Below are positions 3,908 to 18,793 of a stretch of 64,000 nucleotides of DNA, in pieces. The DNA is from an uncultured Actinomycetes bacterium. GTDB lineage: Bacteria; Actinomycetota; UBA4738; HRBIN12. The DNA lies in contig CAVRSI010000015.1 in assembly GCA_963723855.1 (NCBI GenBank), positions 195,553 to 259,552 on the forward strand. The letters are read 5' to 3'. Below the pieces are notes generated by a model, which was given only the letters and a program-made list of their open reading frames with translations, made no database searches and was not told the DNA's origin. The translations under genes and the position numbers were made by a program. Positions within the stretch are counted from its first letter, which is position 1. Every line of letters starts with the position of its first letter.

Positions 3908-4268
3908 CTACGACGCGAACTCGAACCGGGGGTTCACCATGCGAACCTCGCCGCGCTTGTCCCCCAGCACCCCTTCGACGATGACCTTCGTTCCCAGCGT
4001 CATCCCCTGGATCCCTCGCCGCCCCATGAACACGATGTTCGCGTCGCCGGTCCCGTCGTAGAGCAGCGCCTCGAGCGTCTCCTGCCCCTCGACGGGGAAG
4101 ACCGTGATCCGCCGAACCACGCCGGCGAGCTTCACCGGCTCCCGGAGCGGCGCTTCGGCGATGCGCGTCGTGCCCGGCACCTTCTCCGCCCAGCCGCGGA
4201 TCTCCGGCCGAAAGGCGTGCCTCGTCGCTCTCCTTCAGCCGGTCGAAGAAGCGACGGAAGACTGCCAT
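3908..4268 (-). CDS. OB-fold nucleic-acid-binding domain protein (actinobacterial type); one frame break near 4198-4212
   Basis: The N-terminus MAVFRRFFDRLKESDEARLSA (start of ORF 3489..4268) joins EIRGWAEKVPGTTRIAEAPLREPVKLAGVVRRITVFPVEG...MVNPRFEFAS (ORF 3908..4180) after a 1-nt shift. The family assignment is from memory of mycobacterial homologues. Confidence 0.6.
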
Positions 4269-4277
4269 GCTTCGGTG

Positions 4278-6543
4278 CTACGACGCTGCCATCGACGAGG
4301 CATCGGCCTGCCGGACCACGTCCTCGAGCTCGGACTTGCGCGTCTTCGAGATGTAGATCATCACGCCGAGGATGACGACGCACACGGCGGCGACCGCGAT
4401 CCGGAACGCGACGTCCGTCGGCGTGCGTGACCACGAGCGGTGCGATCAACAGCGCGACCAGGTTCATCACCTTGATCAACGGGTTCAATGCCGGGCCGGC
4501 CGTGTCCTTGAACGGGTCGCCCACCGTGTCGCCGATGACGGCGGCCTTGTGCGCGTCGCTGCCCTTGCCCCCGAAGTGCCCTTCCTCGATGTACTTCTTG
4601 GCGTTGTCCCATGCGCCGCCCGAGTTCGACAGCATCACGGCGAGCAGCTGTCCGGTGAGGATCGCGCCGGCCAGGAACGCCCCGAGCGCTTCGCCCTTCA
4701 ACAGGAAGCCGGCGATGACGGGCGAGAGCACCGCCAGCAGGCCCGGCGTCATCAGCTCACGGAGCGAGGTCTTGGTGCAGATGTCCACGACACGGCCGTA
4801 GTCCGGCTTCTCCGAGTAGTCCATGATCCCCGGGTGATCGCGGAACTGGTTCCGCACCTCGACGACGACCTGCGCCGCCGCCCGGCCGACCGCGCGGATC
4901 GCGAGCGACGAGAACAGGAACGCGACCGACCCGCCGAGCAACAGCCCCACGAGCACGTCCGGGTGGTCGACCCGGATGCCGATGAAGTTGAAGCCGGCGC
5001 CGCGCAGCGCTTCCTCGAACGAACCGAACAGCGACGTCGCCGCGATCACGGCCGTCGCGATCGCGAGCCCCTTCGTGATGGCCTTCGTGGAGTTCCCGAT
5101 GGCGTCCAGGCCGCCCAGGATCTCGGCCGGCCTGCCCTCGAACTCCCCGGACATCTCCGCGATGCCCTGCGCGTTGTCCGAGATCGGCCCGAACGTGTCC
5201 ATGGACACGACGACCCCGACCGTGGTCAGCATCCCCATGCCGGTGAGCGCGATGAAGTACAGGCGCTCGGCGTTCGAGTGACCCAGCAGGAACGCGGCCA
5301 TGATGTCCCCGGCGATCACGATGATCGACCACACGGTCGATTCGAGCCCGACGGAGAATCCCGCCAGGACCGTCGTCGCCGCCCCGGTGACGGTGGACTC
5401 CGCGATCTCCTGCACGGGCCGGTGTTTCGTATCGGTGAAGTGCTGCGTGAGCACCTGGATGATGCTCGCCAGGATCAGCCCGAACGCCACGGCGAAGCCC
5501 GGCTTCCATGAGTGCATGTAGGAGTTCGAGATCACGAACACGGCCGCGGCTGAGATGACCGCGGAGATGAAGAACCCGCGGTTGATGGCCTTCATCCCGT
5601 GCTCCTCTTCACTCCGAGGAGCCACGGCGAGGATCCCGATGATCGAGGTGATCACGCCGACCGCTCGCACGAACAGCGGGAACATCACGCCGGCGATCGC
5701 GCCGATCGACGAGCCGCTGTACGCGGCCGCGCCCAGGATCAAGGAGGCAACCAGCGTGACCTCGTAGGACTCGAACAGGTCCGCCGCCATCCCGGCGCAG
5801 TCGCCCACGTTGTCGCCCACGTTGTCGGCGATCGTCGCGGCGTTGCGCGGATCGTCCTCGGGGATCCCCTGCTCGACCTTGCCGACCAGGTCGGCGCCCA
5901 CGTCGGCCGCCTTCGTGAAGATGCCGCCTCCCACCCGCATGAACATCGCGAGCAGGGCGCCGCCGAACCCGAAGCCCACCAGGACGCTCGTGGCGTCCTG
6001 CTTGTAGATGAGCAGGATCACCGTCGCGCCGAACAGGCCGAGTCCTACCGTGAACATCCCGGCCACGCCGCCGGCGCGGAAGGCGATCCGGACCGCGCGC
6101 CGCAGGCCCGACTCACGCGCGGCGTTCGCCGTCCGGACGTTCGCCCGGACCGCGAGCCACATCCCCACGTAACCGGTCGTGGCGCTGAACACCGCGCCCA
6201 GGATGAACGCGAGCGAGCGCCCGAACTTGATCGAGAACTCGGAGTGCACGGCGTCCTTCGGTGCCGGAAGGATGAAGAACAGGATCACGGTCAGGAGGCC
6301 CAGGAAGACCGCGAGCGTCCGGAACTGGCGCGAGAGGTAGGCCTTCGCCCCCTCCTGGATCGCCTTGGCGATCTCCTTCATCTTCTCGGTGCCCTCGGGA
6401 GCTCCGAGCACCTCGCGCACCAGGTAGTAGGCGAACAGCAGGGCGATCAGCGAGACGCCCATGGTCACCCACAGGAACGTGTTTTCGAACGACCCGAATA
6501 CCGCTCGGATCGGGCCACTCTCCTGGGCCAAGACGCCGTGCAT
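4278..6543 (-). CDS. hppA: Membrane H+-translocating pyrophosphatase, K+-independent type; one frame break near 4408-4424
   Basis: ORF 4132..6582 from [10 protein letters not shown] carries typical H+-PPase blocks ([72 protein letters not shown]). [10 protein letters not shown] has Lys at the position that is Ala in K+-dependent enzymes. After LVVTHAD the track frame turns Arg-rich; the shifted frame gives a final TM helix, [44 protein letters not shown], with its stop at 4278-4280. Confidence 0.9.
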
Positions 6544-6605
6544 CGAACCTCCTCGAGATGTGTGGGAGCGTGCCTCTCTCACCCGACCGGGCCGGGAACG
6601 CGTGA

Positions 6606-6660: not shown

Positions 6661-7023
6661 TCAGCGGGCGATCCAGTAGCCGAGCCCGGCGACCAAGAAC
6701 GCCGGCGGGCCGGAGAGCAACAGGTTCCAGCCCACGTAGCGCCATGCCCCGTCCTCGATCAGCTGCACCGTCTCGTACGTGAAGGTCGAGAACGTGGTGA
6801 ATCCGCCGATCACGCCGGTGCCGACGAACGTGAGCCATGTCGCCGAGACGTGCCCGGCGGTCGCGGCGCCGACCAGGAGTCCCAAGGCGAAGCTCCCAAC
6901 CAGATTCACCACCAGCGTGCTCAACGGGAACGGGCTGCGTTGGCGGGGAGCGATCACTCCCTCAACCGAATACCGAAGCAGCGCGCCCAACCCGCCACCG
7001 GCGGCAACGGAAAGCGCGATCAT
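6661..7023 (-). CDS. crcB: Fluoride channel CrcB/FluC (distal copy)
   Basis: 120 aa: MIALSVAAGGGLGALLRYSV...LSTLVVNLVGSFALGLL...TGVIGGFTTFSTFTYET. This is the CrcB signature with four TM segments. It has an ATGA overlap with the upstream DUF190 gene. Confidence 0.9.
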   Translation of the reverse strand: MIALSVAAGGGLGALLRYSVEGVIAPRQRSPFPLSTLVVNLVGSFALGLLVGAATAGHVSATWLTFVGTGVIGGFTTFSTFTYETVQLIEDGAWRYVGWNLLLSGPPAFLVAGLGYWIAR

Positions 7024-7361
7024 CCGGGATGGGTTCCCCGGTAGGAACGGACCTCCACCCGTTCGACGGTCACCAGCCCGTCGCCGACCATCGGATCGAT
7101 CTCCTCGATGAACGCGTCGATACGGTCGACCGTGTCGACGATCTCGATCAACAGCGGGAGGTCCTCTGAGAGACGAAGGATGCGTGCGGTGTGCAACCGC
7201 GAGCTGGCGCCGAATCCCTCGATCCCCCGGATCACGGTCGCTCCGGCAAGCCCCCGCTCGTGTGCGAGGTGGACGATCTCCTCGTACAGGGGTTTGTGCT
7301 GCCACGTATCCGATTCCCCGATGAAGATCCGCAACAGCTTGCATTCGCCTTCGAGCTTCAT
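7020..7361 (-). CDS. DUF190 (PII-like) protein, commonly linked to crcB
   Basis: 113 aa: MKLEGECKLLRIFIGESDTWQHKPLYEEIVHLAHERGLAGATVIRGIEGFGASSRLHTARILRLSEDLPLLIEIVD. It is sandwiched between two crcB genes, with ATGA overlaps on both sides. Confidence 0.8.
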   Translation of the reverse strand: MKLEGECKLLRIFIGESDTWQHKPLYEEIVHLAHERGLAGATVIRGIEGFGASSRLHTARILRLSEDLPLLIEIVDTVDRIDAFIEEIDPMVGDGLVTVERVEVRSYRGTHPG

Positions 7362-7732
7362 CGATCCTCCCTCGGCCTCGCCGGACCGAACCGTCCGGTC
7401 CAGATCCCGTAGACCCCCGCCGCCTGACCGGCGACCAGCGTGGCGAGCCAATACACGAGCGCCGTCCGTACATGGCCCGTATCGATGAGCTTGACCCCTT
7501 CCACGGCCATCGTCGAGAAGGTCGTGTAGGCGCCGAAGAACCCGATCGCGACCAAGGGGCGCATGAATCGGGTCGGCCTGAGCCGCTCGGAAAGCAACAC
7601 GGCGACGACGCCCAGCCCGAACGCCCCGGTGACGTTGACGAAGAACGTCGCCCACGGGAACGCCCCTTGATCGCCGGCGAACGCAAGGCCGATCCGCCAT
7701 CGGGCGAGCGCTCCCACGGCGCCGCCGACCAT
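7358..7732 (-). CDS. crcB: Fluoride channel CrcB/FluC (proximal copy); an alternative GTG start at 7765
   Basis: MVGGAVGALARWRIGLAF...WATFFVNVTGAFGLGVV...IGFFGAYTTFSTMAVEG matches CrcB. Paired crcB genes suggest a heterodimeric channel. Confidence 0.85.
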   Translation of the reverse strand: MVGGAVGALARWRIGLAFAGDQGAFPWATFFVNVTGAFGLGVVAVLLSERLRPTRFMRPLVAIGFFGAYTTFSTMAVEGVKLIDTGHVRTALVYWLATLVAGQAAGVYGIWTGRFGPARPREDR

Positions 7733-7829
7733 GACCGCCGCGGTCCGTGCATGCGAAGGCTTCACGATCGCCGAGCGTCTCAGACGGCCAGGTTCCATCG
7801 AGGCGATGCACCGATCGTGGCGCCTGTTC

Positions 7830-8366
7830 TCAAAGCTCGTCTCGCTTGCGGAAGAAGGCGACCGCAGCACGCCGCCGGCTCTCGTTCGAGACGTACTGAG
7901 GACGTTCGTAGGCGTCGACCGCAAGCGTCCCTTGCCAGTCGATGAACGGCTCGATGGTCGAGTGGTCGATCCCAGCCGCAGCCGCCTCTTCCTCGAGCCG
8001 ACGCAATTCGGTCCGCAAGCGTTGCGCCTCCAACTTCAGGAGCGGCACGATATCTCGGTCGAGCTTGATATACGCCAGGAACGCTTCGCGCTCAGCCTCC
8101 TCGGACACCGCGAACCGCGCACGGTTGGTCACGAGCAGGATGCGCAGCTCCGCAACTGACGCGGCGGATGCGGCGCACCGGATCCTCAGACCTTCGATCC
8201 TGGAACGACCGGTGTCACCGCTTCCGCTGAACGCGGGATCATCCTCAGCCACGATGCGGACCCCTCTGTCGCACGCTTCCGCGATCAACGCCTCCTGGGA
8301 AAGCTCCGGGCGTACCGCCTTCGCGCGGTCAAGATCGGCCTTGAAGATCCTCATGGGCTCGCTCAC
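7830..8366 (-). CDS. Hypothetical protein (178 aa from GTG 8366, or 174 aa from ATG 8354), second gene behind riboswitch A
   Basis: Clean ORF: (VSEP)MRIFKADLDRAKAVRPELSQEALIAEACDRGVRIVAEDD...LKLEAQRLRTELRRLEEEAAAAG...FFRKRDEL. GTG 8364-8366 overlaps the stop of the upstream gene (GTGA). I recognise no family. Confidence 0.6.
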   Translation of the reverse strand: MSEPMRIFKADLDRAKAVRPELSQEALIAEACDRGVRIVAEDDPAFSGSGDTGRSRIEGLRIRCAASAASVAELRILLVTNRARFAVSEEAEREAFLAYIKLDRDIVPLLKLEAQRLRTELRRLEEEAAAAGIDHSTIEPFIDWQGTLAVDAYERPQYVSNESRRRAAVAFFRKRDEL

Positions 8367-8830
8367 GTACTGCCCTCGCCGATCGCAGCGCGAAGGGCGA
8401 CGATCCGGGCTCGGTACGCGTCGATATCCCGTTGCAGACGGGGGAGCATCCAATCGACGGTCTGCTCGATCTCTCTTCGATACATCCGCGTGGACAATTC
8501 GCGCTTGCGGGTTTCCTTCGAACCATCGAACCAGGCGTAGCGGGTCACTGGGATCAGGGACTCCACAGATCTCACCACGTTCTCCAGGCGGTCGAGACGC
8601 TCTTCGTCCGTCGGGAGGCTGCTTAGCTCAGCCTCCACGACGATGTCGAAAAGGCCGGCTTCCAGGATGAACCGTCGCTCGGACGTGTCGATCGGCATGG
8701 CGGGCGACTCGGGCTCGGCGACGTCGATGAACTCCTCGGCGACGTATTCGTAGTCCAGGTCGCGCACCATCGGACGTAACGATCCGAGGTCGGGAGTGGG
8801 TCGCTTGAGCGAGTGATCCGATCCGGTCAT
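8363..8830 (-). CDS. Hypothetical acidic protein (155 aa), first gene behind riboswitch A
   Basis: ORF: MTGSDHSLKRPTPDLGSLRPMVRDLDYEYVAEEFIDVAEPES...RMYRREIEQTVDWMLPRLQRDIDAYRARIVALRAAIGEGST. The ATG lies only 2 nt after the GGAGG of the riboswitch platform, so the start could instead be the internal Met at 8770. I recognise no family. Confidence 0.6.
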   Translation of the reverse strand: MTGSDHSLKRPTPDLGSLRPMVRDLDYEYVAEEFIDVAEPESPAMPIDTSERRFILEAGLFDIVVEAELSSLPTDEERLDRLENVVRSVESLIPVTRYAWFDGSKETRKRELSTRMYRREIEQTVDWMLPRLQRDIDAYRARIVALRAAIGEGST

Positions 8831-8898
8831 GGCCTCCTACCTCGATCCGGTAGGAGCCATCAGCTCAGCGTGAGCGGGTTCGGCGAGCTCCATCGCCC
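8831..8898 (-). promoter_or_regulatory. Fluoride riboswitch (crcB motif), copy A: aptamer 8849-8898 plus an SD-sequestering helix
   Basis: Minus-strand RNA: GGGCGAUGGAGCUCGCCGAACCCGCUCACGCUGAGCUGAUGGCUCCUACC-GGAUCGA-GGUAGGAGGCC-AUG. Elements are P1 GGCG/CGCC, loop GAUGGAGCU, an AAC linker, P3 GCUCA/UGAGC, CUGAU, and a 3' GCUCC complementary to the loop GGAGC (pseudoknot), then CCUAC. CUCCUACC pairs with GGUAGGAG and masks the SD. A TAAGAT -10-like box is at 8910-8915. Confidence 0.8.
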
Positions 8899-8968
8899 TT
8901 CGACATCACATCTTAAGCCCTCAACCGGTTCGGCGCGTCCGTTCCGAGCTCGGTGTCAGCGGCATGAT

Positions 8969-10491
8969 CTACTGCCCGAGGTCAGTGGCCGTCCGCCCTT
9001 CGGTGTCCCGGGCGGTATCGAAGATGCGCCAGTAGGCGTCCTCGCCGAAGCTGGTTGGCAATGGTTCACCTTCGATGAGTCGGAACGTGCGCCGACCGTC
9101 GGGCTGCCGTTCGGCGCGAAGGAAGTAGGCAGTGTCCAGCTGCTGGATGTAGAAGCCGTGCGCGAGGTCGAACAGGTGCGTGACGAAGAAGACCTTGACG
9201 CCGGCATCTATCGATGCGCGGACGACTTGCCGGGCGATCTCGGAGCCCTCTCGCTCGTTCGTTGCCGAGAACGACTCGTTGCACAGCAAGAGGGAGTTCG
9301 GCGTGATCATGTCGGCGAGGTCGCTCATCCTCCCGAGCTCTTCGTCCAGCTTGCCGCTCTGCATCGTGACGTCTTCTCCTCGTTTGAAGTGCGTGAAGAC
9401 ACCGGTACAGACGTTGGCGCTGAAGGACTCCGCACCGACGAACATCCCGCTCTGCATCATCAGTTGCGCCGATCCGACGCTGCGCAGGAACGTCGACTTG
9501 CCGCCCTGGTTGGCGCCGGTGATCATGACGAGCAGCTTGCTCGCCGCTGTGACGTCATTGCCGACGACATCGTTCGCCACGCTCAGCGCCAGACAAACGT
9601 CGTACATCCGTCGAGCGGTGAGCGACGGGCGATCCTCAACGATGGGCATCGGGAAGGACGTCGGCTCTCCCTTCGCCGTCAGGCGTTCGTGCACATTCAC
9701 GCAGCCGATGTAGAAGCCGGTTTCCGCCCGCAACAGATCGAAGAAGCTGCGGATGTAATCGGCGGACTGAGCGAGCACGTTGGCAACCTGGTTGATCCTT
9801 TCGCTCGCAGGTCGCCCAGCGCCCTCGCCCCGCTCTCGTCGCGATCCGCGATCTGGAAGCTGAGGCCGGACCTGCCCCTGCGAGTGATCCGCTGCCTCCA
9901 GCTCAGCGTGGGGAGCGTCCGCAGCACGTAGTGGACGCCCTTGTTGCCCCTCCCGAGCTCGGCACTCATCAAGACGCCGCGCTCGAACCGCAACTCCTCG
10001 AGACGATCCTCGATGGTTCGGAAGTACGCGTCGTCCAGCTCCTCCGCGAGCATCGCGAAGAAACGCACGAAGCCATCGGACCGGAACCCTCCGGCGTGAT
10101 CGTCCGCGAGCCTGCGAAGCTGCCTGAGCGAACCCACGAACACCTCCATGGACTGGAGCGATCGCGTGAGGACGGCTTGCGGGGACATGAACGCGCCCCA
10201 GATCTTCTTCTCTTCCATGATCGCGCCGGCGGCGACCTGATAGATCTGTCTGACGACGGACGGTCGCTCCAGGCAGTCGGTCAGCACGTGCTGCCGGTAG
10301 ATGATCGCCTCCGGGCTCGTCAGGCTCGTCAGAACGGCCTTCCTCGCCACGTCGAACAGGAACGGGTCACCGGCCGCCATCGCGTTGAAGAGGATGTTCA
10401 GCTCGAGGTCTTGGGTGAGCGATCCTTCGTTCGACGGGAGTTCGCGCTGGAGGTCGAAGTCATCGTCCTCGTACATCAGGAAAGCCTTCAT
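8969..10491 (-). CDS. MutS-related ABC-type ATPase B (MutS domains III/V only); one frame break near 9796-9800
   Basis: The N-terminal half is ORF 9697..10491 (MKAFLMYEDDDFDLQRELPSNEGSLTQDLELNILFNAMAAGDPFLF...). The C-terminal half is ORF 8969..9778 (Walker A ITGANQGGKSTFLRSVG, LLLCNESFSATNEREG, Walker B/signature region). The two join as ...LRAKG-INQVANVLAQSADYIRSFF. There is no mismatch-binding domain I and no Smr/nuclease domain. Confidence 0.8.
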
Positions 10492-12020
10492 CGCACGTAT
10501 CCGCCTCCGCAGCGTCTCGTACGTAGGCCGTACTTCTCGGCGATGGCAGCGGCATAGGCAAGTCCGTCTGCGGGCTTCCTGGTGATCTTAACGTTCGCGT
10601 CGCGGGGTCATCGGGCACGACCGCGCTCACCATGCTGACCGTGACCTCGCTGAGGGAGGACAGCTCGTCCATGAAGGTCACGCACACGCACAACGAGTGC
10701 AACGCGATCAACCGATCCGTCACTTCCGTGCCGAGGAACACGGCGTCACGAAGCGAGGTCGAGTTGAAGCTCTCGTTCATGATGACGACGCTGTCGCTGG
10801 TCGCCAGGCGGAGGATTCGTGGAAGCTACCAGTTCATCCTCGAGCTTTCCGCGGAGGGTCGCGAGGTTCTCTTCCCGTTCGAAATGCGCGAAGACGTGAT
10901 CGGGCAGGGAGAGGTGCGCTGCCTTCGCAGGAACGAGACAACCGAGGTTGGCGAGATGATGCAGCTGGCCGAACATCCGTGCGAACGTCGTCTTCCCGCC
11001 TTGGTTCGGACCGGTAACGACGATGACGCGTTCCGGCTCCGTGAGATCGAACGAGTTGCACACGACCTCCGAACCCTGCGGGACGAGCTTGTTGGCGAGC
11101 GCGAGATCGAACGCATCGTGTGCGAACACGTGCTTCGCGCGAACGGACACGTGCGGGTAGCAGAACGGCAATCCGGCCGATCGGAACCGCTTGGCGTGCT
11201 CGAGATATGCCAGGTAGAACTGCACCTCCCGATCGAAGGTGCCGATGATCTGATCGAGGTAGTCACGGTGACGCACGCGATACTCGTCCAGCGCTCGCGA
11301 GACGTCGGGATACAGCTGTGCCACCAACTCGAACACGCGAGCTTCAACGGGATCCATGTCCAGCGAAGCAGTGAGTTTGACCCGGTGATCCCCCACGGCG
11401 CCGTGCTTGAACTTCGCGAACGTCTCCACGACCTCTGCGCTGAAGTCAGGCTCTCCCTCGTACCTGCTGACCGTGACCCGGTTCCCAGCGATGTGAACGC
11501 AGTACTTCACCGAAGCCAAGGCGTCCTTCAGCTCACGCGTTGCCGATATGAGTGACGTGAACGTCACGGACGCGGTGTAGTCCAGGATGTAGTCGCGGAA
11601 CGCCCGCAGGCCACGTGATGTCAATCCGAGAGATGCGAACCCTTCAGCCAGCGATCGAACCGCGTCGCAGTAGACCTCCACCGCCTCAACGAACCAACGC
11701 TTCTTCTGCGATGTGTAGTAGAGCTTCTCCACCTGAGCGAGATGCGCGCGCATCTCCTGCATGCGTCGCGAGAAGGCCTGGATGGCTTCCATGACCGCGC
11801 CATCCTCGAGGTCACGGAATACCTCATGCCGGTAGTACACGGCTTCGACGTCGCGCAACGGCGTGTAGAAGAAGGGCTTCAGTTGGTACTCGTCGCGACC
11901 GGCCGTTATCGACTCCACCACCTGATCGAGATTCAGGTCGCGGAAGAACCCGGGCTCTTCGAGCTCGTCGATCACGACGCTGCTCGGAGGCTGGTCGAAG
12001 AGGACGCTGTGGAACCGCAC
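10488..12020 (-). CDS. MutS-related ABC-type ATPase A (MutS domains III/V only); at least two frame breaks (10586-10594, 10818-10832); start revised to GTG 12020 (or 12032)
   Basis: ORF 10746..12164 contains (V)RFHSVLFDQPP...PGFFRDLNLDQVVESI and Walker A VTGPNQGGKTTFARMFG. It continues in ORF 10460..10780 (VIMNESFNSTSLRDA...VCVTFMDEL) and then in a third frame (KITRKPADGLAYAAAIAEKYGL...). The stop TGA 10488-10490 overlaps the ATG of ATPase B. The first 44-48 codons of the track ORF are occupied by riboswitch C and its leader. Confidence 0.75.
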
Positions 12021-12153
12021 GTCCCGACGCACCGGAGAGCCGTTCGGGTTCCGGAGCCTGCCGAGCTCCTGGGTCCCTCCGCCGGTGAAGGATCCTCGCT
12101 CGCTCGTGATACGCCTCCTTCCGCTGACGTCCGAAGCGCCCCGAGGGGCAGCC

Positions 12154-12202
12154 GTAGAAGCCATCAGCGTCGGAAGACGCGGTTCAGGCGAGCTTCATCG
12201 CC
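12154..12202 (-). promoter_or_regulatory. Fluoride riboswitch (crcB motif), copy C, aptamer; leader extends to about 12021
   Basis: Minus-strand RNA: GGCGAUGAAGCUCGCCUGAACCGCGUCUUCCGACGCUGAUGGCUUCUAC. Elements are P1 GGCG/CGCC, P3 GCGUC/GACGC, and loop GAAGC paired with 3' GCUUC. That pseudoknot carries a compensated double change relative to GGAGC/GCUCC in copies A and B. A TAACAT -10-like box lies at 12209-12214, 6 nt upstream. An SD-like GGAAGGAGG near 12114-12122 has no canonical start after it. The first in-frame GUGs are at 12032 and 12020. Confidence 0.75.
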
Positions 12203-12247
12203 ACCCCGATGTTAGCCCAGGAGGCGACGGACGGATGGCCTCGACCG

Positions 12248-12874
12248 CTATCCGTCTGACGTCGATCCCGCGAGCAGGCCGATGATGCGTCGCGCCGCGA
12301 GCGAGCGTTGTTCCGGGTCGTTGGCCGAGACTCGGGCGCGCGCGCTGAGCGCGAGGAGGGAGCGACGCTGCGTCGCGATGAGGAACCGCAGAGTGGACCG
12401 ACCGGGGCGAGTCCGACCGCCATGCTGAGATGCGGCCGGCAGATGCCGGTCGACACCTGATAGGCGGCGAGCACGTCGGGCTCGGCGAGCGCGTCGAAGA
12501 GCATCCCGAGCACCGACCGCCCTCGACGTTCTACCGCCGCGCATACGGGACACGCAGGTGGCCCCTCGGCCACACCCGCTCCGAAGTCCTCCGAGGCGGC
12601 CTGAGCAGATCCGCGAAAGGAGCCGCGCGCCCGCCGCCCCCAGATCCCCTCCTCGTCGGTCGAACACGCTCGCCCAGTGGGGCGCACAGAGTCCGCGGGA
12701 GTCGACGGTCTTGTCAATCGTCTCCTCTTCCCGGATGTTCGTGGTCGCGAGCCACGACAGGACCGCCCGTTCGGTCTCCCCCGCCAGCCGGCAGACGGGA
12801 CATCCGTCGCTACGAAGTGCGAGACCGAGCTCGGCCTCGAGGAGAATCTCGCGGAGAGGTTTCCGCTTCGTCAC
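12248..12874 (-). CDS. Hypothetical protein with two CPVC motifs (putative zinc-binding); two frame breaks (12398-12408, 12599-12614)
   Basis: Reconstructed from ORFs 12248..13243 and 12184..12717: VTKRKPLREILLEAELGLALRSDGCPVCRLAGETERAVLSWLATTNIREEETIDKTVDSRGLCAPHW...ARLLSRI / AQAASEDFGAGVAEGPPACPVCAAVERRGRSVLGMLFDALAEPDVLAAYQVSTGICRPHLSMAVGLAPV / RSTLRFLIATQRRSLLALSARARVSANDPEQRSLAARRIIGLLAGSTSDG. Its GTG start overlaps the phosphatase stop (GTGA). Confidence 0.55.
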   Translation of the reverse strand: MTKRKPLREILLEAELGLALRSDGCPVCRLAGETERAVLSWLATTNIREEETIDKTVDSRGLCAPHWASVFDRRGGDLGAAGARLLSRICSGRLGGLRSGCGRGATCVSRMRGGRTSRAVGARDALRRARRARRARRLSGVDRHLPAASQHGGRTRPGRSTLRFLIATQRRSLLALSARARVSANDPEQRSLAARRIIGLLAGSTSDG

Positions 12875-13504
12875 ATGCGCAGGGAGTCTTGTGCTCGACC
12901 TGCCTGTCGGAACAGGTCTTCGAGGACGGTCGGCACCTGCAGCCCTTCGTCGGTCGCCCGCAGCTCGATCACGGAGCCCGGCGACACGTCCGGGTCCCAA
13001 AACGCCGTTCCTTCGAGCCCCTTCAGACGCACGAGCACCAGCCGGATGAGGAGCTCGTGCGTGACCACGGCCACCGCTCGTTCGGGGTGCCGACCGCCTA
13101 TCGACTCCAGGGCCCTGAATGCACGTCGCTCGGCGGCCGCCATGCTCTCTCCGGAGGGGAAGGTCGCCGCCGCCGGGAACCGGAAGTAGAAGTCGAACGC
13201 TCTCGGCTCCGACTCCCTGATCGAGCGGCGTGCGAGCCACCACGAGCCCACGTCGACATCGGTCAGATCACTTCGATCGGCGTGGAACCACACCGACGGA
13301 ACGCCCGATGACGTCGGCGGTCTCCCGGGCGCGACGCCGGGGACTGGTGTAGATCGCGGAGACGTCCTCGAGAGCCAGACGCTCCGCCGCGCGCCGCGCA
13401 TCGTCCACGCCTTGCGCGGTCAGCGGGTCGTCCGTCTGTCCTTGCAGCCGACCTTCACTACTGAGAGCGGTCCGACCGGCTCGCACCACGAACAACGATG
13501 TCAT
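12871..13504 (-). CDS. Histidine-phosphatase (phosphoglycerate-mutase-like) fold protein with RAG in place of the catalytic RHG; one frame break near 13289-13306
   Basis: N-terminus from ORF 13268..13633: MTSLFVVRAGRTALSSEGRLQGQTDDPLTAQGVDDARRAAERLA...IYTSPRRRARETADVIG. C-terminus from ORF 12871..13401: VWFHADRSDLTDVDVGSWW...FRFPAAATFPSGESM...VAVVTHELLIRLVL. The codons read CGA GCC GGT, that is R-A-G. Confidence 0.7.
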
Positions 13505-13701
13505 CGGGAGCTCCCCCCATGTATGGCTTCCGCCGACGGCACATCCGGTGCGGTACGGATCGACATCGCCACGTGATCCCAGTCGATGCGGAGCAGCTCG
13601 ACCGGTCTGACGCGCGGGACGAACCGATTCCAATCCACGTCGACATCTTCGATCCGTCGCTCGCGCAGCGCAGGCGTCAGGTGCGGATAGGCGGAGGTCA
13701 T
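13501..13701 (-). CDS. Possible separate 66-aa ORF between the dynamin-like and phosphatase genes
   Basis: MTSAYPHLTPALRERRIEDVDVDWNRFVPRVRPVELLRIDWDHVAMSIRTAPDVPSAEAIHGGSSR. GGAGG lies 4 nt upstream of the ATG at 13699-13701. As sequenced it is in frame with the dynamin ORF. Removing one C from the C5 run at about 13712-13716 would end the dynamin gene with an ATGA overlap onto this ATG. Confidence 0.35.
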   Translation of the reverse strand: MTSAYPHLTPALRERRIEDVDVDWNRFVPRVRPVELLRIDWDHVAMSIRTAPDVPSAEAIHGGSSR

Positions 13702-15483
13702 GGCGCCTCCATCACCACCATGACGGGGGCCGGTCGCGGCCGTTTGGAACGCCTCACGGAGCTGGTCGAGCCGGCGTCGATCGACCCGCGCATCTTCCTT
13801 GGCTCGCAGGGCGTCTTCGGCCGACCGCTGCCGATCGCGTTCGGAGCGTTCGAATCCCCGCACCGAGGCTCTCGATGGTCGCTTCCAGGCTCCGGTCCAA
13901 TGCCGATCCAAGGTCACGGCGACTCCGGTCGAGCCGCTGCACGAAGTCCCAGTGAAGGCGTCCCATGTGCTTGTCGACGAGCGAAGGAGTCGCTCCCTCA
14001 AGGTCGCGCAGGAACAGGCGCCGCGCCGTCTCTCGCGGCAGGAACCGGCGAACGTCCGGCAGGATCGACTCGATGATCGATGGAGGTTCGAAGAAGCTGA
14101 AACTGAACGGGGTCCGGAAGACAGCTCGACGAGATGGCCCTCGGAAACGAGCTGGATCCCGAGGATCTCGCCGCACAGCCGGACGGTCTCCCGCTCGGTA
14201 CCGTCCGCCTCCTCGACGAAACGGGCCGTTGCGTCCCGGAACGCGGCGGAGAGCGTCTGCTCCTCGAGTCCGCGCCAGTGGCCGATATCGGTGCGGAGCG
14301 CCTCCCTCAAGAACACGAACCCCTCGTCGTCCCGCGCGATGCGCCGGACGTCCTCAAGCGAGGCAACGTGTTCCTCGACGGCAGACGTCAGGCGGGTCTC
14401 CTCCTCGGAACGAAGCTGTTCCAGATCCTGCTCGAGACGGGACACGAGCGCCTCGGCCTCCTGATCGAGAAGAGCGTGCATGTCGCGTTGTCTCGATCGA
14501 GCCTGGGCGAATACCTCCTGCATGCGCCGACGAGCCTCTTCCAGCTCCTGGACGGGGAGATCGAGCGCCCGCTCCTGCACCTCCAGCGCGTTGCGCTCGT
14601 CGTCCACCAGCCGCAGCGCACGCCCGGCCACGGAGGCCAGGATGGCCCGCCCTTTCTCGTCCAGCAGGAACGTCCGGAAATCACGTTCGAACGCGGGGAG
14701 CCCCGAAGCCTCCAACTCGCGGTCGTCTCCGGCGAGCTTCGCCCGGAGCGCCCGGCGGGCGCTCAAGGGATAGACAACGACGTCCTGCCCGACGGCTTCT
14801 TCGATAACCCGATGTGTGAACGCGATGGACTCGTCACGGTCGAGCCCCGACAGGTAGTCGATCTTGTTCAGGACGAAGAAGAGACGCGCCGTCTCCCCGC
14901 GAACTCCTCGAGGAACGCACGCTCCGTCTCGGAGAATTGGCGGGTCCGCAGAGGTGAGGAAGACGGCGGCGTCGGATTCGGAGAGGAAGGCGCGCGCCGC
15001 CTCGGTGTTGCGCTGGTAAACGCTGCCGACGCCGGGCGTATCGACTAGGAACACCCCGTCACGCAGATCTTCCGACGGGTACGACACCACGGCCCTCGCG
15101 ACCCCCAGCGCATTGTCCGGGTTGCCTCGCTCGGTCACGTACGTAGCGAGATCCGTCACGTCGACGTCCTCTTCGCGGCCGTCGAGATAGCCGATCCGAG
15201 CTCGGATCTCCCTCCCCCACGTCACCGCCGTGACGATCGAGGTGAGTGGCACGACGGCGGAAGGAAGCACGTCTGCGCCGAGGAGTGCATCCACGAACGT
15301 GGTCTTGCCCCGTTTGAACTCGCCGAAGACCACGACGTTGAATCGGTTCTCGACGAGCTTCTTGTCGAGGGCCCGTGCAGCGTCTGTGACGGCCCGGCTC
15401 TCGCGTCGGTCGGCGAACTCGGCGAGATCGTCGAGCGCCACGAGAAGCCTGTCCCGCTCCTCCGCGTAGGTTCGTTGACCCAT
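13699..15483 (-). CDS. Bacterial dynamin-like GTPase (BDLP family); four frame breaks inferred (13855-13862, 14125-14140, and a compensating pair at 14893-14900 / 14932-14938); 3' end uncertain
   Basis: ORF 13501..15483 has G1 VVVFGEFKRGKTTFVDALLG, G3 FLVDTPGVGS and G4 FFVLNKIDYL, followed by long coiled-coil-like stalk sequence. The middle of the C-terminal part is in ORF 13754..14176 (FRTPFSFSFFEPPSIIESILPDVRRFLPRETARRLFLRDLEGATPSLVDKHMGRLHWDFVQRLDRS...). It is the first gene after riboswitch B. Confidence 0.8.
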
Positions 15484-15560
15484 GGAAAAGCTCCTACCTC
15501 TGCATCCAGGTAGGAGCTATCAGCTCGCCGGGGCGAGCGGTTAGGCGAGCTCCATCGCCT
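15484..15560 (-). promoter_or_regulatory. Fluoride riboswitch (crcB motif), copy B: aptamer 15509-15560 plus an SD-sequestering, terminator-like helix at 15484-15520
   Basis: Minus-strand RNA: AGGCGAUGGAGCUCGCCUAACCGCUCGCCCCGGCGAGCUGAUAGCUCCUACC-UGGAUGCAG-AGGUAGGAGC-UUUUCC-AUG. Elements are P1 GGCG/CGCC, loop GAUGGAGCU, an AAC linker, P3 GCUCGC/GCGAGC, CUGAU, and a 3' AGCUCC complementary to the loop GGAGCU, then CCUAC. GCUCCUACCU pairs perfectly (10 bp) with AGGUAGGAGC and masks the SD AGGAG. A TATACT -10-like box lies at 15568-15573, 7 nt upstream. Confidence 0.85.
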
Positions 15561-15649
15561 CACCCGAAGTATAGGGGAGCGGAGGAGCGAACCTTCCCAA
15601 GGATCGCCAACGACGATGGTCGACTCTCCCCGCTCCGTAAACTCGCAGG

Positions 15650-16922
15650 ATGAGCTATCAGATCGATTCGATACGTGCGCTGGAGAGTCCTGGATTCCCG
15701 AGGCAGACCGACGCTGCACGTGACCCTGGGACTCGTCGGAGGCGCGATCGGGACGGCCGGCGTGCCATCCGGCGCGTCGACCGGGACCCGCGAGGCCGTC
15801 GAGAGGCGGGACGGCGACCAGGAGCGGTTCGAAGGCGCGGGCGTCCAGCGGGCCGTCATGACCGTCGAAGGGGAGATCGCGGACGCCGTGACCGGCCGCG
15901 ACTGGGAGTCTCTGGCGGAACTCGATCATGCCCTGATCGGGTTGGACGCAACGCCTAACAAGGAACGGCTCGGCGCGAACGCCATCGTCGGTGTCTCCAT
16001 GGCGGCGGCTCGCGCGATGGCGGCGGCCGACGAGCGTCCGCTCTACGAGTGGCTGGCTCCGTCGGGATACGCGCCACGTCTTCCCGTCCCGCACTTCAAC
16101 GTCATCAACGGCGGGGCGCACGCCGGCAACCAGCTCGCGTTCCAGGAGTTCATGATCGCGCCGATCGGCGCGCCGAGTTTCCGCGAAGCGCTGCGGGCCG
16201 GCGCTGAGACCTACGCCATGCTCCGGCACGGACTGAAGGAGGCCGGCTACGCGACCGGTCTGGGCGATGAAGGCGGCTTCGCTCCGGAGATCTCGGAGCC
16301 GGAGGAGGCGTTGGACCTCCTCGTCGAGGCCATCCGGGCCGCCGGATACGAACCCGGCCGGGACTCGGTCGCGATCGCGCTCGATCCAGCGGCGTCGGGC
16401 TTCCGTGCGGAAGACGGCATGTACGAGGTGACCGAGGCACGGCTGACCTCGGCGGAGATGACCGAGCGCTACGCGCAGATGGTGGACCGCTATCCGGTGT
16501 GGTCGATCGAGGACGGGCTCGCGGAAGACGATCCGGAAGGGTGGACCGAGTTGACCCAACGCCTCGGCGACCGGATACAGATCATCGGGGACGATAATTT
16601 CGTCACGAACCCGGGCCTCATACGGGAGGCCATCGCGCATGGCATCGGCAACGCTGCGCTCATCAAGCTGAACCAGATCGGGACCGTCACGGAAACCCTC
16701 GAAGCGATCGAGGTCAGCCGATCGGGCGGGTACGCGCAGATGATCTCGCACCGGTCCGGAGAGACATGCGATCCATTCATCGCCGACCTGGCGGTCGCCG
16801 TGGGCTGTGGCCAGATCAAGTCCGGGGCCCCGGCTCGAGGCGAGCGACTCGCGAAGTACAACCGCCTTCTCGAGATCGAGCTGGGGCTGGACCGTCCGAC
16901 GTTCGGCCTCGTACCCAAGTGA
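15650..16922 (+). CDS. eno: Enolase, divergent copy (SHRSGETCD instead of SHRSGETED); one extra base near 15683-15687
   Basis: ORF 15675..16922 has VLDSRGRPTL, VPSGASTGTREA, GDEGGFAP, LIKLNQIGTVTET, SHRSGETCDPFIADLAV and RGERLAKYNRLLEIE. The canonical N-terminus MSYQIDSIRALE is in ORF 15650..15958, one frame off. It joins as ...IRALE-VLDSRG. Confidence 0.9.
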
Positions 16923-17413
16923 GCTTCGAAGGGTCCGCGCTTTGGCGCGTCCGGCAGAAGATCGGGCACGACCTCCTGCTGTGGCCGGGCGCGACCGTGC
17001 TCCTGGAAGACGCGGACGGACGGATCCTCCTGGGTCTGCGGCGCGACAACGACGAGTGGACGATGCCCGGAGGCGGTGCCGAGGAAGGCGGGAGCTTCGC
17101 CGCGACGGCGCTCGACGAGTTGCGGGAAGAGGTGGGGCTCGAGGCCGACGCAGCGGACCTGGTCGCGTTCGCATGCGTCTCGGAGTCCGCCGACCACCTG
17201 ATCCCGTACCCGAACGGAGACCTCACCCACTACTTCGGCATCTGGTTCGTGCTCCGCCGGTGGCGGGGCGAGCCGGAGGCCGATGGCGACGAGCTCGTCG
17301 AGCTCGGGTGGTTCTCCCGCGACGCGCTCCCCGAGCCGTTGATGCACAGCTCGGCCGTGGCGCTCCGGCACTACACGGCGTACCTGGAGTCAGGCGTCTT
17401 CCAGATCGGCTGA
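16919..17413 (+). CDS. NUDIX hydrolase
   Basis: The Nudix box is GGGAEEGGSFAATALDELREEVGL. Its GTG start overlaps the eno stop (GTGA at 16919-16922). Confidence 0.75.
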   Translation: MSFEGSALWRVRQKIGHDLLLWPGATVLLEDADGRILLGLRRDNDEWTMPGGGAEEGGSFAATALDELREEVGLEADAADLVAFACVSESADHLIPYPNGDLTHYFGIWFVLRRWRGEPEADGDELVELGWFSRDALPEPLMHSSAVALRHYTAYLESGVFQIG

Positions 17414-18793
17414 GGGTGGTGACTCGGCGGCCTCGACGGGCCTGGTCCCCGATGTGCGGCGCAACCATACGAAACCGATAGGTCCCGCCAGGATCGCCGT
17501 CAGCAGGATCCCGATCTTCGCTTGCTCGACCGCTCCGGGCTGCCCGACGAAGGCCACATCAGCCACGAACAACGAAACCGTGAACGCGACGCCAGCGGCC
17601 GCGGCCACGGCGAATATGCTTCCGAGTCGTGCCCCGTCGGGTAGCCGCCCGATCCCGAGCCGAACCGTGAGCCACACCCCTCCCCCGATCCCCACGATCT
17701 TTCCCACCACGTGGCCGCTCACCACCCCAAGCGTCACCGGACTCCTGAGCGCATCGGCGACCGCATCGACGGATAGTGGTATGCCCGCGTTCGCCAACGC
17801 GAACAGCGGAAGCACCACGATCGTCGCCATAGGGAGGAGCAGGTGCTCCATCCTTGCGAGCGGCGACACAGCCTCTTTCGAGAGCCAAGCGAGCTGCAAC
17901 CACCAACGCGCATCGGCGTCGGGCGGGTCGGGTTCGTCAACGGTCTCATCGGCGACACGGATCGCTTCCTCGCGCACGTGGCGGGGTCGCTGGAGCGGGA
18001 ATGCCGGCGTGAGCAGCCCCACCACCACGCCCGCGAGGGCAGGCTCCACGCCCGAGGCATCGAGCGACAACCACATCGCCACTCCCAACGCCGCGAAGAT
18101 CGCCATCGAACGAACGCCGAGACGTCGGATCAGCACCATCGCGCCGGCCACGCCGATCGCCAGCAGGAGTGCTGGGAACCGGATGAGGGACGGATAGAAC
18201 ACCGCGATCACGACGACGGTGAGGATGTCGTCCACGATCGCCAGCGTGAGCACGAAGGCCCGAAGGCCGACCGGAGCGTTCCGGATGGCGAGCGCGAGGA
18301 TCCCCAGCGTGAACGCGATATCGGTCGGCATCGCGATCCCCCACCCCCGCGAACCAGCCCCGCCTCTGTTCACGAGCAGATAGATCAGAGCGGGCACGAC
18401 CATCCCTGCGACCGCAGCGATGACGGGGAGCGCTGCCGCGCGCACATCCCGCAGTTCACCGATCAATACCTCGCGCTTGATCTCCAGCCCGACGACGAGG
18501 AAGAAGAACGACATCAATCCGTCGTTCACCCACGCTCGCAGGCTGTCGTTGACTGTCCAGCTGCCCACGCCGAGAGAGATCGGGGTGCGCCATAGCCGCA
18601 CGTAGCTTTCGGCGAGCGGCGAGTTCGCCCATACCAATGCAACGACCGCCGCGGCGACGAGCAGGATCCCGCCTGACGTCGAGGACTCGAGGAACTCCTG
18701 AAGTGGGCGCACGACGCGGCGCGGCACAGCACGGTTCGACTGCGCCCACGAGGGCCGGATCGCGGGGCCGGGTCTGGGGGTGTCGTTCGCCAT
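17390..18793 (-). CDS. nhaA: Na+/H+ antiporter NhaA (copy 1)
   Basis: 467 aa with ...LVWANSPLAESYVRLW...NDGLMSFFFLVVGLEIKREVLIGEL...VPALIYLLVN...AIVDDI..., typical NhaA. Confidence 0.85.
   Translation of the reverse strand: MANDTPRPGPAIRPSWAQSNRAVPRRVVRPLQEFLESSTSGGILLVAAAVVALVWANSPLAESYVRLWRTPISLGVGSWTVNDSLRAWVNDGLMSFFFLVVGLEIKREVLIGELRDVRAAALPVIAAVAGMVVPALIYLLVNRGGAGSRGWGIAMPTDIAFTLGILALAIRNAPVGLRAFVLTLAIVDDILTVVVIAVFYPSLIRFPALLLAIGVAGAMVLIRRLGVRSMAIFAALGVAMWLSLDASGVEPALAGVVVGLLTPAFPLQRPRHVREEAIRVADETVDEPDPPDADARWWLQLAWLSKEAVSPLARMEHLLLPMATIVVLPLFALANAGIPLSVDAVADALRSPVTLGVVSGHVVGKIVGIGGGVWLTVRLGIGRLPDGARLGSIFAVAAAAGVAFTVSLFVADVAFVGQPGAVEQAKIGILLTAILAGPIGFVWLRRTSGTRPVEAAESPPSADLEDA

Follow-up and report, generated by a model that had tools for sequence, protein, structure and literature searches.

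A fluoride aptamer in the leader of a dynamin-like gene

The window analysed here is a 64,000-nucleotide stretch of contig CAVRSI010000015.1 from an uncultured Actinomycetes bacterium, and the element under study is a fluoride (crcB-class) riboswitch located on its minus strand, in the 5' leader of and on the same strand as a gene for a dynamin-like GTPase. When the entire window was scanned against 4227 Rfam families with covariance models, three matches exceeded the gathering score (GA), all of them to RF01734 (GA 34 bits), on the minus strand and over the full model. The copy studied, aptamer B (15504-15568, with its core at about 15510-15559), matched model positions 1-64 with 49.0 bits (E 1.5e-10) and scored 69.9 bits with our own covariance model, R1. 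The other two are aptamer A (8844-8906, 52.6 bits) and aptamer C (12148-12211, 45.2 bits), the latter preceding a pair of MutS-like ATPase genes, and all three fit within 7 kb. Aptamer B ends 26 nt before the AUG (15481-15483) of the dynamin-like gene (13501-15483, minus strand), which as assembled is an open reading frame (ORF) of 660 aa that matches Pfam Dynamin_N with 82.3 bits (threshold 27, 5e-23). The first-pass annotation of this DNA had proposed a fluoride riboswitch upstream of a dynamin-like GTPase gene, and both parts of that proposal passed these model-based checks.

In aptamer B, the Rfam alignment and folding place a P1 stem, GGCG/CGCC (15556-15559 with 15544-15547), which closes the 8-nt loop AUGGAGCU, and a P3 hairpin of 6 bp, GCUCGC/GCGAGC, with a CCCG loop (15523-15538). 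The linker reads UAACC, CUGAUA follows directly 3' of P3, and CCUAC is also found there. A pseudoknot joins GGAGCU in the P1 loop (15548-15553) to AGCUCC in the 3' tail (15513-15518, CUGAUGnCUCCUAC region), with six of six pairs being Watson-Crick; its 3' strand is the switching sequence and also starts the 5' arm of the helix described below. All the elements that had been listed by eye (the P1 helix GGCG/CGCC and its loop, an AAC linker, P3, CUGAU, the AGCUCC/GGAGCU pairing and a final CCUAC) are present in the sequence, and the RNA had been quoted with the correct letters, although the quotation ran 3 nt past the coordinate given for it, to 15481. The sole departure from the Rfam consensus, CUGAUA instead of CUGAUG, is a common natural variant, the corresponding pseudoknot pair being U-A in 33 of 104 related aptamers.

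These 104 distinct aptamers, taken from dynamin loci, also served as the covariation set, and the pseudoknot was absent from the model used to align them. P1 pairs covary across the set and compensatory changes occur at all four modelled P3 pairs. Since the unmodelled pseudoknot is paired in 99.7% of the cells, with compensatory changes at three of its six pairs, the aptamers of the dynamin loci are genuine. Aptamer B is an ordinary new member of the known class RF01734.

Between the aptamer and the start codon lies a hairpin of 11 bp with an 8-nt loop (15489-15518, loop 15500-15507), in which AGCUCCUACCU (15508-15518) pairs with AGGUAGGAGCU (15489-15499) on the minus strand. Its predicted stability is -20.3 kcal/mol (z -3.54), a value equalled by none of 200 shuffled sequences. 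In the fold of the whole leader, P1, P3 and this hairpin form the default state, the hairpin being present in both the minimum free energy and the centroid structures. The Shine-Dalgarno (SD) sequence AGGAG (15491-15495), 7 nt before the AUG, is contained in the 3' arm, and a short U-tract, UUUU (15486-15489), comes after the hairpin and would act as a weak intrinsic terminator at most. A perfect helix burying AGGAG and followed by UUUU had thus been recognised correctly at first pass, apart from its length, which is 11 and not 10 bp.

Upstream of the aptamer, a -10-like hexamer, TATACT (15568-15573, minus strand), predicts a transcription start at about 15560-15562, at the aptamer 5' end. The distance between the motif CTATACT/ATATACT and the aptamer is constant, at 7-9 nt, in the window and in three related loci (L001, L002 and L003), while the flanking sequence diverges. 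We therefore infer that transcription starts at the first aptamer nucleotides; a sigma-70 consensus scan of 8000-16500 found no full promoter. Taken together, the region 15504-15568 (minus strand) very probably represents a functional-looking crcB-class riboswitch that would work as an ON switch of the dynamin-like gene starting at 15483.

Distribution of the unit and its genomic neighbours

A homologue search with the dynamin-like protein returned more than 2000 relatives, mostly of about 590 aa and generically annotated, from Actinomycetota and other metagenome-assembled genomes (MAGs). A scan guided by a profile, in which each GTDB species was represented by a single genome, then provided 80 loci with 33-90% identity, which cover at least five phyla and comprise Actinomycetota, Nitrospirota/Thermodesulfovibrionales, Syntrophobacteraceae and other Desulfobacterota, Acidobacteriota, Candidatus Binatia and Pelotomaculum. 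Our own covariance model, built from 16 aptamers above the Rfam threshold, detected 115 aptamers in the 875 kb of these loci. In 61 of the 80 loci this model found a same-strand aptamer whose end lies no more than 300 nt before the expected start of the dynamin, and 54 of the 61 also reach the Rfam gathering score. In another ten, the nearest same-strand aptamer lies 0.9-2.9 kb upstream. The remaining nine gave no match with default filters, and a search of these nine with filters off yielded a single weak and divergent hit (13.3 bits, in L040). Direct linkage occurs in Actinomycetota, Nitrospirota, Desulfobacterota, a Candidatus Binatia MAG and Pelotomaculum (Bacillota), and an Acidobacteriota MAG is connected through an aptamer-led operon. 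One carrier is a cultured isolate, Desulfacinum hydrothermale DSM 13146, with its aptamer at 5788-5854 and the dynamin gene from 5986 of locus L072, which correspond to about 222602-222668 and from about 222800 on NZ_FWXF01000003.1.

No conserved partner gene was detected downstream of the dynamin, the largest cluster being seven major facilitator superfamily (MFS) transporters in 58 loci; the other downstream genes vary and include enolase (three cases), HIT and HAD-like genes. Likewise, the other genes of the window's island mostly do not travel with the dynamin, each being present in 1-11 of the 80 loci. Given such variable neighbours, the linkage is of the aptamer to the dynamin itself, and this genomic association is shown across phyla.

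In eight of the ten loci with a distant aptamer, the intervening genes could be identified. Between aptamer and dynamin, L023, L042, L048, L053, L055 and, judging by ORF sizes, L070 have a Na+/H+ exchanger, in some cases together with a universal stress protein; L063 has an MFS transporter there and L039 a second dynamin gene. The exchanger loci show a recurrent operon, whose upstream part lies about 1.3-2.8 kb before the dynamin, in the order aptamer, CPA-type Na+/H+ exchanger and dynamin, with the universal stress protein between the last two in L023, L048, L053 and, by ORF size, L070. The aptamers of L042 and L053 score 20-23 bits with our model. In addition, seven dynamin-proximal aptamers reach 21-55 bits with our model and fall below the Rfam gathering score (L058 2394-2455, L009 5708-5767, L015 5899-5958, L017 5749-5818, L076 5855-5918, L043 5785-5861 and L071 5796-5875); these may be divergent variants of the fluoride aptamer that the curated model misses.

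Other arrangements were observed in individual loci. Paired MutS-like ATPase genes, each with a Walker A motif and accompanied by their own fluoride aptamers, lie near the dynamin in distant phyla (L032, 2474-5989; L039, 8672-11974), the order in L032 being aptamer, MutS-like pair, aptamer and dynamin. In L039 (3010-7700, Acidobacteriota MAG), the aptamer leads an operon of a second dynamin-family gene (619 aa), an ORF of 184 aa and the family member, possibly a pair of dynamin-like proteins (DLPs) resembling IniA/IniC or DLP1/DLP2. In L011, from a Deltaproteobacteria MAG, an M-box (Mg2+) riboswitch (4758-4935, plus strand) is located about 0.5 kb downstream of the dynamin gene linked to a fluoride aptamer; fluoride complexes Mg2+.

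In the window, genes were mapped by codon-position GC analysis and domain searches. An enolase gene (15675-16922, plus strand; NCBIfam TIGR01060, 537 bits, and GC3 frame analysis, that is, of GC at third codon positions) is divergent from the riboswitch-dynamin unit and has no aptamer of its own; enolase is a classic target of fluoride. An NhaA gene lies at 17390-18793 (minus strand). On the other side, all on the minus strand, the dynamin is followed by a histidine-phosphatase-like gene (about 12871-13633) split across frames and, between this gene and aptamer C, by a Cys-rich ORF (about 12248-12870) whose frame is uncertain owing to indels and which shows CPVC-type motifs and a sub-threshold match to DUF6062 (24.2 bits vs 27). 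Next come the two MutS-like ATPase genes (8969-10491 and 10460-12164), each split across frames. The first genes after aptamer A are two small ORFs devoid of recognisable domains (155 aa, 8363-8830; 207 aa, 7830-8453), which are followed by crcB, a DUF190-like gene recognised by eye, with no Pfam hit, and a second crcB (6661-7924), and then by a H+-pyrophosphatase gene (4132-6582). Genes connected with fluoride toxicity within 12 kb thus comprise two crcB genes, H+-pyrophosphatase, enolase, NhaA and the MutS-like genes, together with two further aptamers, and this region is a compact fluoride-response island in a genome of 65-70% GC.

Some of these neighbours have features of their own. The histidine-phosphatase-family gene carries RAG (VVRAGRT) in place of the catalytic RHG, as does its counterpart in L001 (7991-8635), near which a paralogue retains RHG; the RAG-type protein may be a catalytically inactive pseudo-enzyme of the island. 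Aptamer A displays the same SD-sequestering design (GGCUCCUACC/GGUAGGAGGCC) ahead of an AUG at 8830. Homologues of the 155- and 207-aa proteins occur in L002 (4850-5700, minus strand) with an aptamer of their own, divergent from that of the dynamin, and in L003 (7875-8746, plus strand) directly downstream of the dynamin. The 155-aa ORF returned only ten close relatives and no domain. The two proteins look like a lineage-specific module of the fluoride regulon.

Function of the dynamin-like protein and mode of control

The predicted product of the window gene is an IniA/BDLP-type dynamin-like protein of ~590 aa. The motifs G1 (GEFKRGKT), G3 (DTPG) and G4 (NKxD) are invariant or nearly so in sets of 26 and 88 homologues and intact in the window copy, and a family profile matches, among PDB entries, Nostoc BDLP (4.8e-39, residues 34-420), Campylobacter DLP1/2, IniA (2e-18) and mitofusins. 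An AlphaFold2 model of an intact homologue (P0003, 68% identical; mean pLDDT 79.8) has long helices at 278-442 and 485-580 and predicts helical neck and trunk bundles around the G domain. With this model, Foldseek returned IniA (6j72; E 2e-20, TM-score 0.48-0.50, 598 columns) and BDLP as top hits, both matched end to end. No transmembrane-like segment was found, the maximum Kyte-Doolittle 15-mer value (1.9) falling within the G domain. Between the long trunk helices, a low-confidence stretch (449-476) contains a strongly conserved aromatic/hydrophobic motif, FxYSFFEVPTILESILPDV; by analogy to IniA this may be a lipid-interacting loop, presumably at the trunk tip. With more than 150 representatives of 50%-identity clusters matching over the full length at E<1e-125, this is a large family, and its Pfam matches are to generic GTPase-domain families only; none of the NCBIfam models attains its curated cutoff with the window protein. 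Assignment to the anti-phage 'Dynamins' system was not supported, since the PADLOC models gave just weak, generic LeoA/LeoBC similarity.

A role as a fluoride-induced factor for membrane remodelling or repair is our best guess, held at slightly less than even confidence. The proteins closest to it in structure, IniA and those of the DynA type, function under envelope or membrane stress, and the genes co-regulated with the dynamin are mostly membrane ion transporters and known fluoride targets. In addition, according to a review (PMC11139923), genes for membrane integrity are up-regulated by fluoride, which also potentiates drugs that act on the cell wall.

Alternatively, the riboswitch may be genuine and the protein no membrane-repair factor at all, serving instead as a fluoride-insensitive substitute GTPase or having its GTPase cycle modulated by metal-fluoride complexes. 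This explanation is the main alternative, though an unlikely one. Trapping of dynamin-family G domains by metal fluorides is established biochemistry, GDP-MgF3-/AlF4- mimicking the transition state of P-loop NTPases. The two MutS-like ATPases under aptamer C are P-loop NTPases as well, and such a pair co-occurs with the dynamin in the distant phyla of L032 and L039. Extra copies of enolase and pyrophosphatase are also known replacement or overexpression responses (PMC11139923). However, the window contains a single dynamin and no sign of a replaced housekeeping paralogue, the fold matches membrane-active DLPs from end to end, the aromatic/hydrophobic motif is conserved at the presumed trunk tip, and the co-regulated genes are mostly membrane transporters.

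As regards control, the arrangement of the leader suggests the following mechanism. In the absence of fluoride, the aptamer 3' strand AGCUCCUACCU would pair with AGGUAGGAGCU, so that the 11-bp hairpin hides the SD sequence, and the UUUU tail may add some termination. With fluoride, the aptamer bound to Mg2+/F- would keep AGCUCC paired to the P1 loop in the pseudoknot, preventing the hairpin from forming, exposing the SD sequence and allowing translation of the dynamin gene. The decision would probably be taken co-transcriptionally, within the roughly 20 nt that separate synthesis of the two arms. The ON switch put forward at first pass relies on this mutually exclusive pairing. The sequence is compatible with it, and related loci show it again, in the form of an SD-sequestering helix in Actinomycetota and of a U-rich terminator elsewhere.

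Whether the hairpin works mainly on translation or on transcription was weighed by comparing leaders. With its 11 GC-rich base pairs immediately followed by UUUU, it might be mainly an intrinsic transcription terminator like that of Bacillus cereus crcB, SD occlusion being incidental, and a canonical terminator is what this aptamer strand builds in most homologous dynamin leaders of other phyla (such as those of Nitrospirota and Syntrophobacteraceae), where the hairpin precedes U6-U9. In the window, however, there are just four U residues, followed by CC, with the AUG 2 nt on, and a terminator scan of 8000-16500 did not call the hairpin. In addition, the four actinobacterial relatives L001-L004 all maintain a helix of GCUCCUACC with GGUAGGAGC/GGUGGGGGC directly before the start codon (about -20 kcal/mol) and keep GGTAGGAGC/GGTGGGGGC ahead of the ATG, whereas UUUU is kept in L001 and missing in L002-L004. 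Because helix and SD sequence persist where the U-tract is lost, SD sequestration is the conserved feature of this clade. Translational control is thus the better-supported mode, with at most a minor contribution from termination, and a primarily terminating hairpin is rather improbable here; the two modes are not mutually exclusive. Accordingly, the earlier claim that the helix buries the SD sequence and that pseudoknot formation would free it is supported, and the terminator-like aspect is weak.

Several points weigh against a fluoride-responsive switch controlling a membrane-repair dynamin. We infer fluoride binding and regulation at aptamer B from its family membership. The evidence for a promoter consists of the conserved -10-like hexamer, and 8 of the 80 homologue loci lack any aptamer match. 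The membrane-repair role is drawn by analogy only, with no transmembrane-like paddle in the protein and no conservation of downstream partners. At equilibrium, the 11-bp hairpin, at -20.3 kcal/mol, should outcompete the 6-bp pseudoknot, so that switching would require kinetic control; since the hairpin is far more stable, the decision is probably kinetic, and co-transcriptional control of this kind has been described for the B. cereus riboswitch (PMC8752731, PMC11077080). Finally, the dynamin ORF of the window is frameshifted and, if the frameshifts were real, the switch would control a pseudogene.

This last point leads to the possibility that the whole unit is a decaying remnant, with a riboswitch left without any useful target and with pseudogenes in place of functional dynamin, histidine-phosphatase and MutS-like genes. 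The dynamin ORF contains two out-of-frame islands (about 14905-14936 and 13854-14116) and its C-terminus reads through the expected stop; because homologues are uniformly 583-610 aa long, compared with 660 aa in the window, the true stop is probably near 13720. The reading frame is likewise broken in the histidine-phosphatase gene and in the two MutS-like genes. Nevertheless, translation in the shifted frame remains strongly similar to the homologues (window scores 66-114 over residues 451-531), indicating that the dynamin gene has not decayed. The comparison with L001, the closest relative (an uncultured Actinomycetes MAG with about 90% nucleotide identity over 10 kb), revealed single-base indels of non-3n length in every gene, including enolase, and at short homopolymers, a pattern typical of assembly error, and the L001 dynamin is frameshifted as well, at other positions. 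Pseudogenisation restricted to the island was rejected on these grounds. The MFD MAG series, to which L001 belongs, presumably consists of long-read assemblies, and the frameshifts of the window are most probably long-read assembly indels. With aptamer B also far above threshold, decay of the unit is very unlikely. A chance likeness of aptamer B to the crcB motif, for which the shortness of the motif (about 52 nt) would speak, is effectively refuted by the E value obtained against 4227 families, by the three copies in 7 kb beside crcB, enolase and pyrophosphatase genes, and by an orthologous position kept in 54-61 other genomes.

Significance and comparison with known systems

Aptamer B adds nothing new to riboswitch biology, and its value resides in the gene family that it labels. 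Riboswitch regulons have repeatedly exposed the functions of unknown genes, crcB and eriC-F having been recognised as fluoride exporters in that way. For bacterial dynamins, the role in the cell is still largely unclear. A tentative proposal, which falls somewhat short of probable, is that the large IniA-like dynamin family of ~590 aa is a core effector of the fluoride-stress regulon, activated by riboswitches across phyla. If true, fluoride resistance would include membrane remodelling or repair, an arm not recognised so far, and bacterial dynamins would have in fluoride their first defined small-molecule inducer; a fluoride-linked dynamin would also point to membrane damage as a part of fluoride toxicity. 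With NaF as a cheap, defined inducer and D. hydrothermale DSM 13146 as a cultured carrier, the question of the dynamin's role would become directly testable.

The RNA is of a known kind, and its association with a dynamin appears to be new. The list given for the fluoride (crcB) motif by Weinberg et al. (2010) includes mutS, K+/Cl- transport and formate hydrogen lyase (PMC2864571), and a 2024 review of the fluoride response (PMC11139923) mentions neither dynamin nor GTPase nor MutS. No link between fluoride riboswitches and dynamins was found in the searchable literature, an earlier mention in Baker et al. (2012), McIlwain et al. (2021) or supplements being possible. With respect to the gene classes named in these two sources (crcB, eriC-F, mutS-like, enolase and others), the gene of aptamer B differs in encoding a dynamin-like GTPase.

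As an RNA, aptamer B shares with the known fluoride riboswitches the same P1, P3, loop-to-3'-tail pseudoknot and conserved nucleotides, and the same ON logic, in which one strand serves both as the 3' side of the pseudoknot and as part of an inhibitory helix. Among these riboswitches are the Thermotoga petrophila aptamer, whose structure is known, and those of B. cereus crcB and Pseudomonas syringae eriC, which are transcriptional and translational ON switches, respectively. Nothing in aptamer B is different in kind, its platform being an SD sequestrator with a vestigial U-tract.

The protein can be set beside three characterised bacterial dynamins. Bacillus subtilis DynA, which has been connected with protection against membrane stress, consists of two dynamins fused into a protein of about 1200 aa, and the NCBIfam DynA model scores 54.6 bits on the window protein against a cutoff of 1600. 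Nostoc punctiforme BDLP (PDB 2j68/2j69), the closest solved structure by sequence profile, has the same layout of GTPase, neck and trunk helical bundles, but it exceeds the fluoride-linked family in length by about 100 aa and has a hydrophobic paddle. Neither BDLP nor DynA is known to be regulated by a riboswitch or by fluoride. The best full-length structural match is the isoniazid-inducible IniA of Mycobacterium (PDB 6j72), despite a sequence identity of only 16-17%: both proteins have about 600 aa, lack transmembrane segments and are stress-induced rather than housekeeping, induction by fluoride being a prediction for the family described here, whose conserved hydrophobic motif would sit at the presumed trunk tip. 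IniA, however, is induced through a protein-based envelope-stress response and is encoded in iniBAC together with a second DLP, whereas the fluoride-linked family has a predicted RNA sensor of fluoride and is usually present as a single gene.

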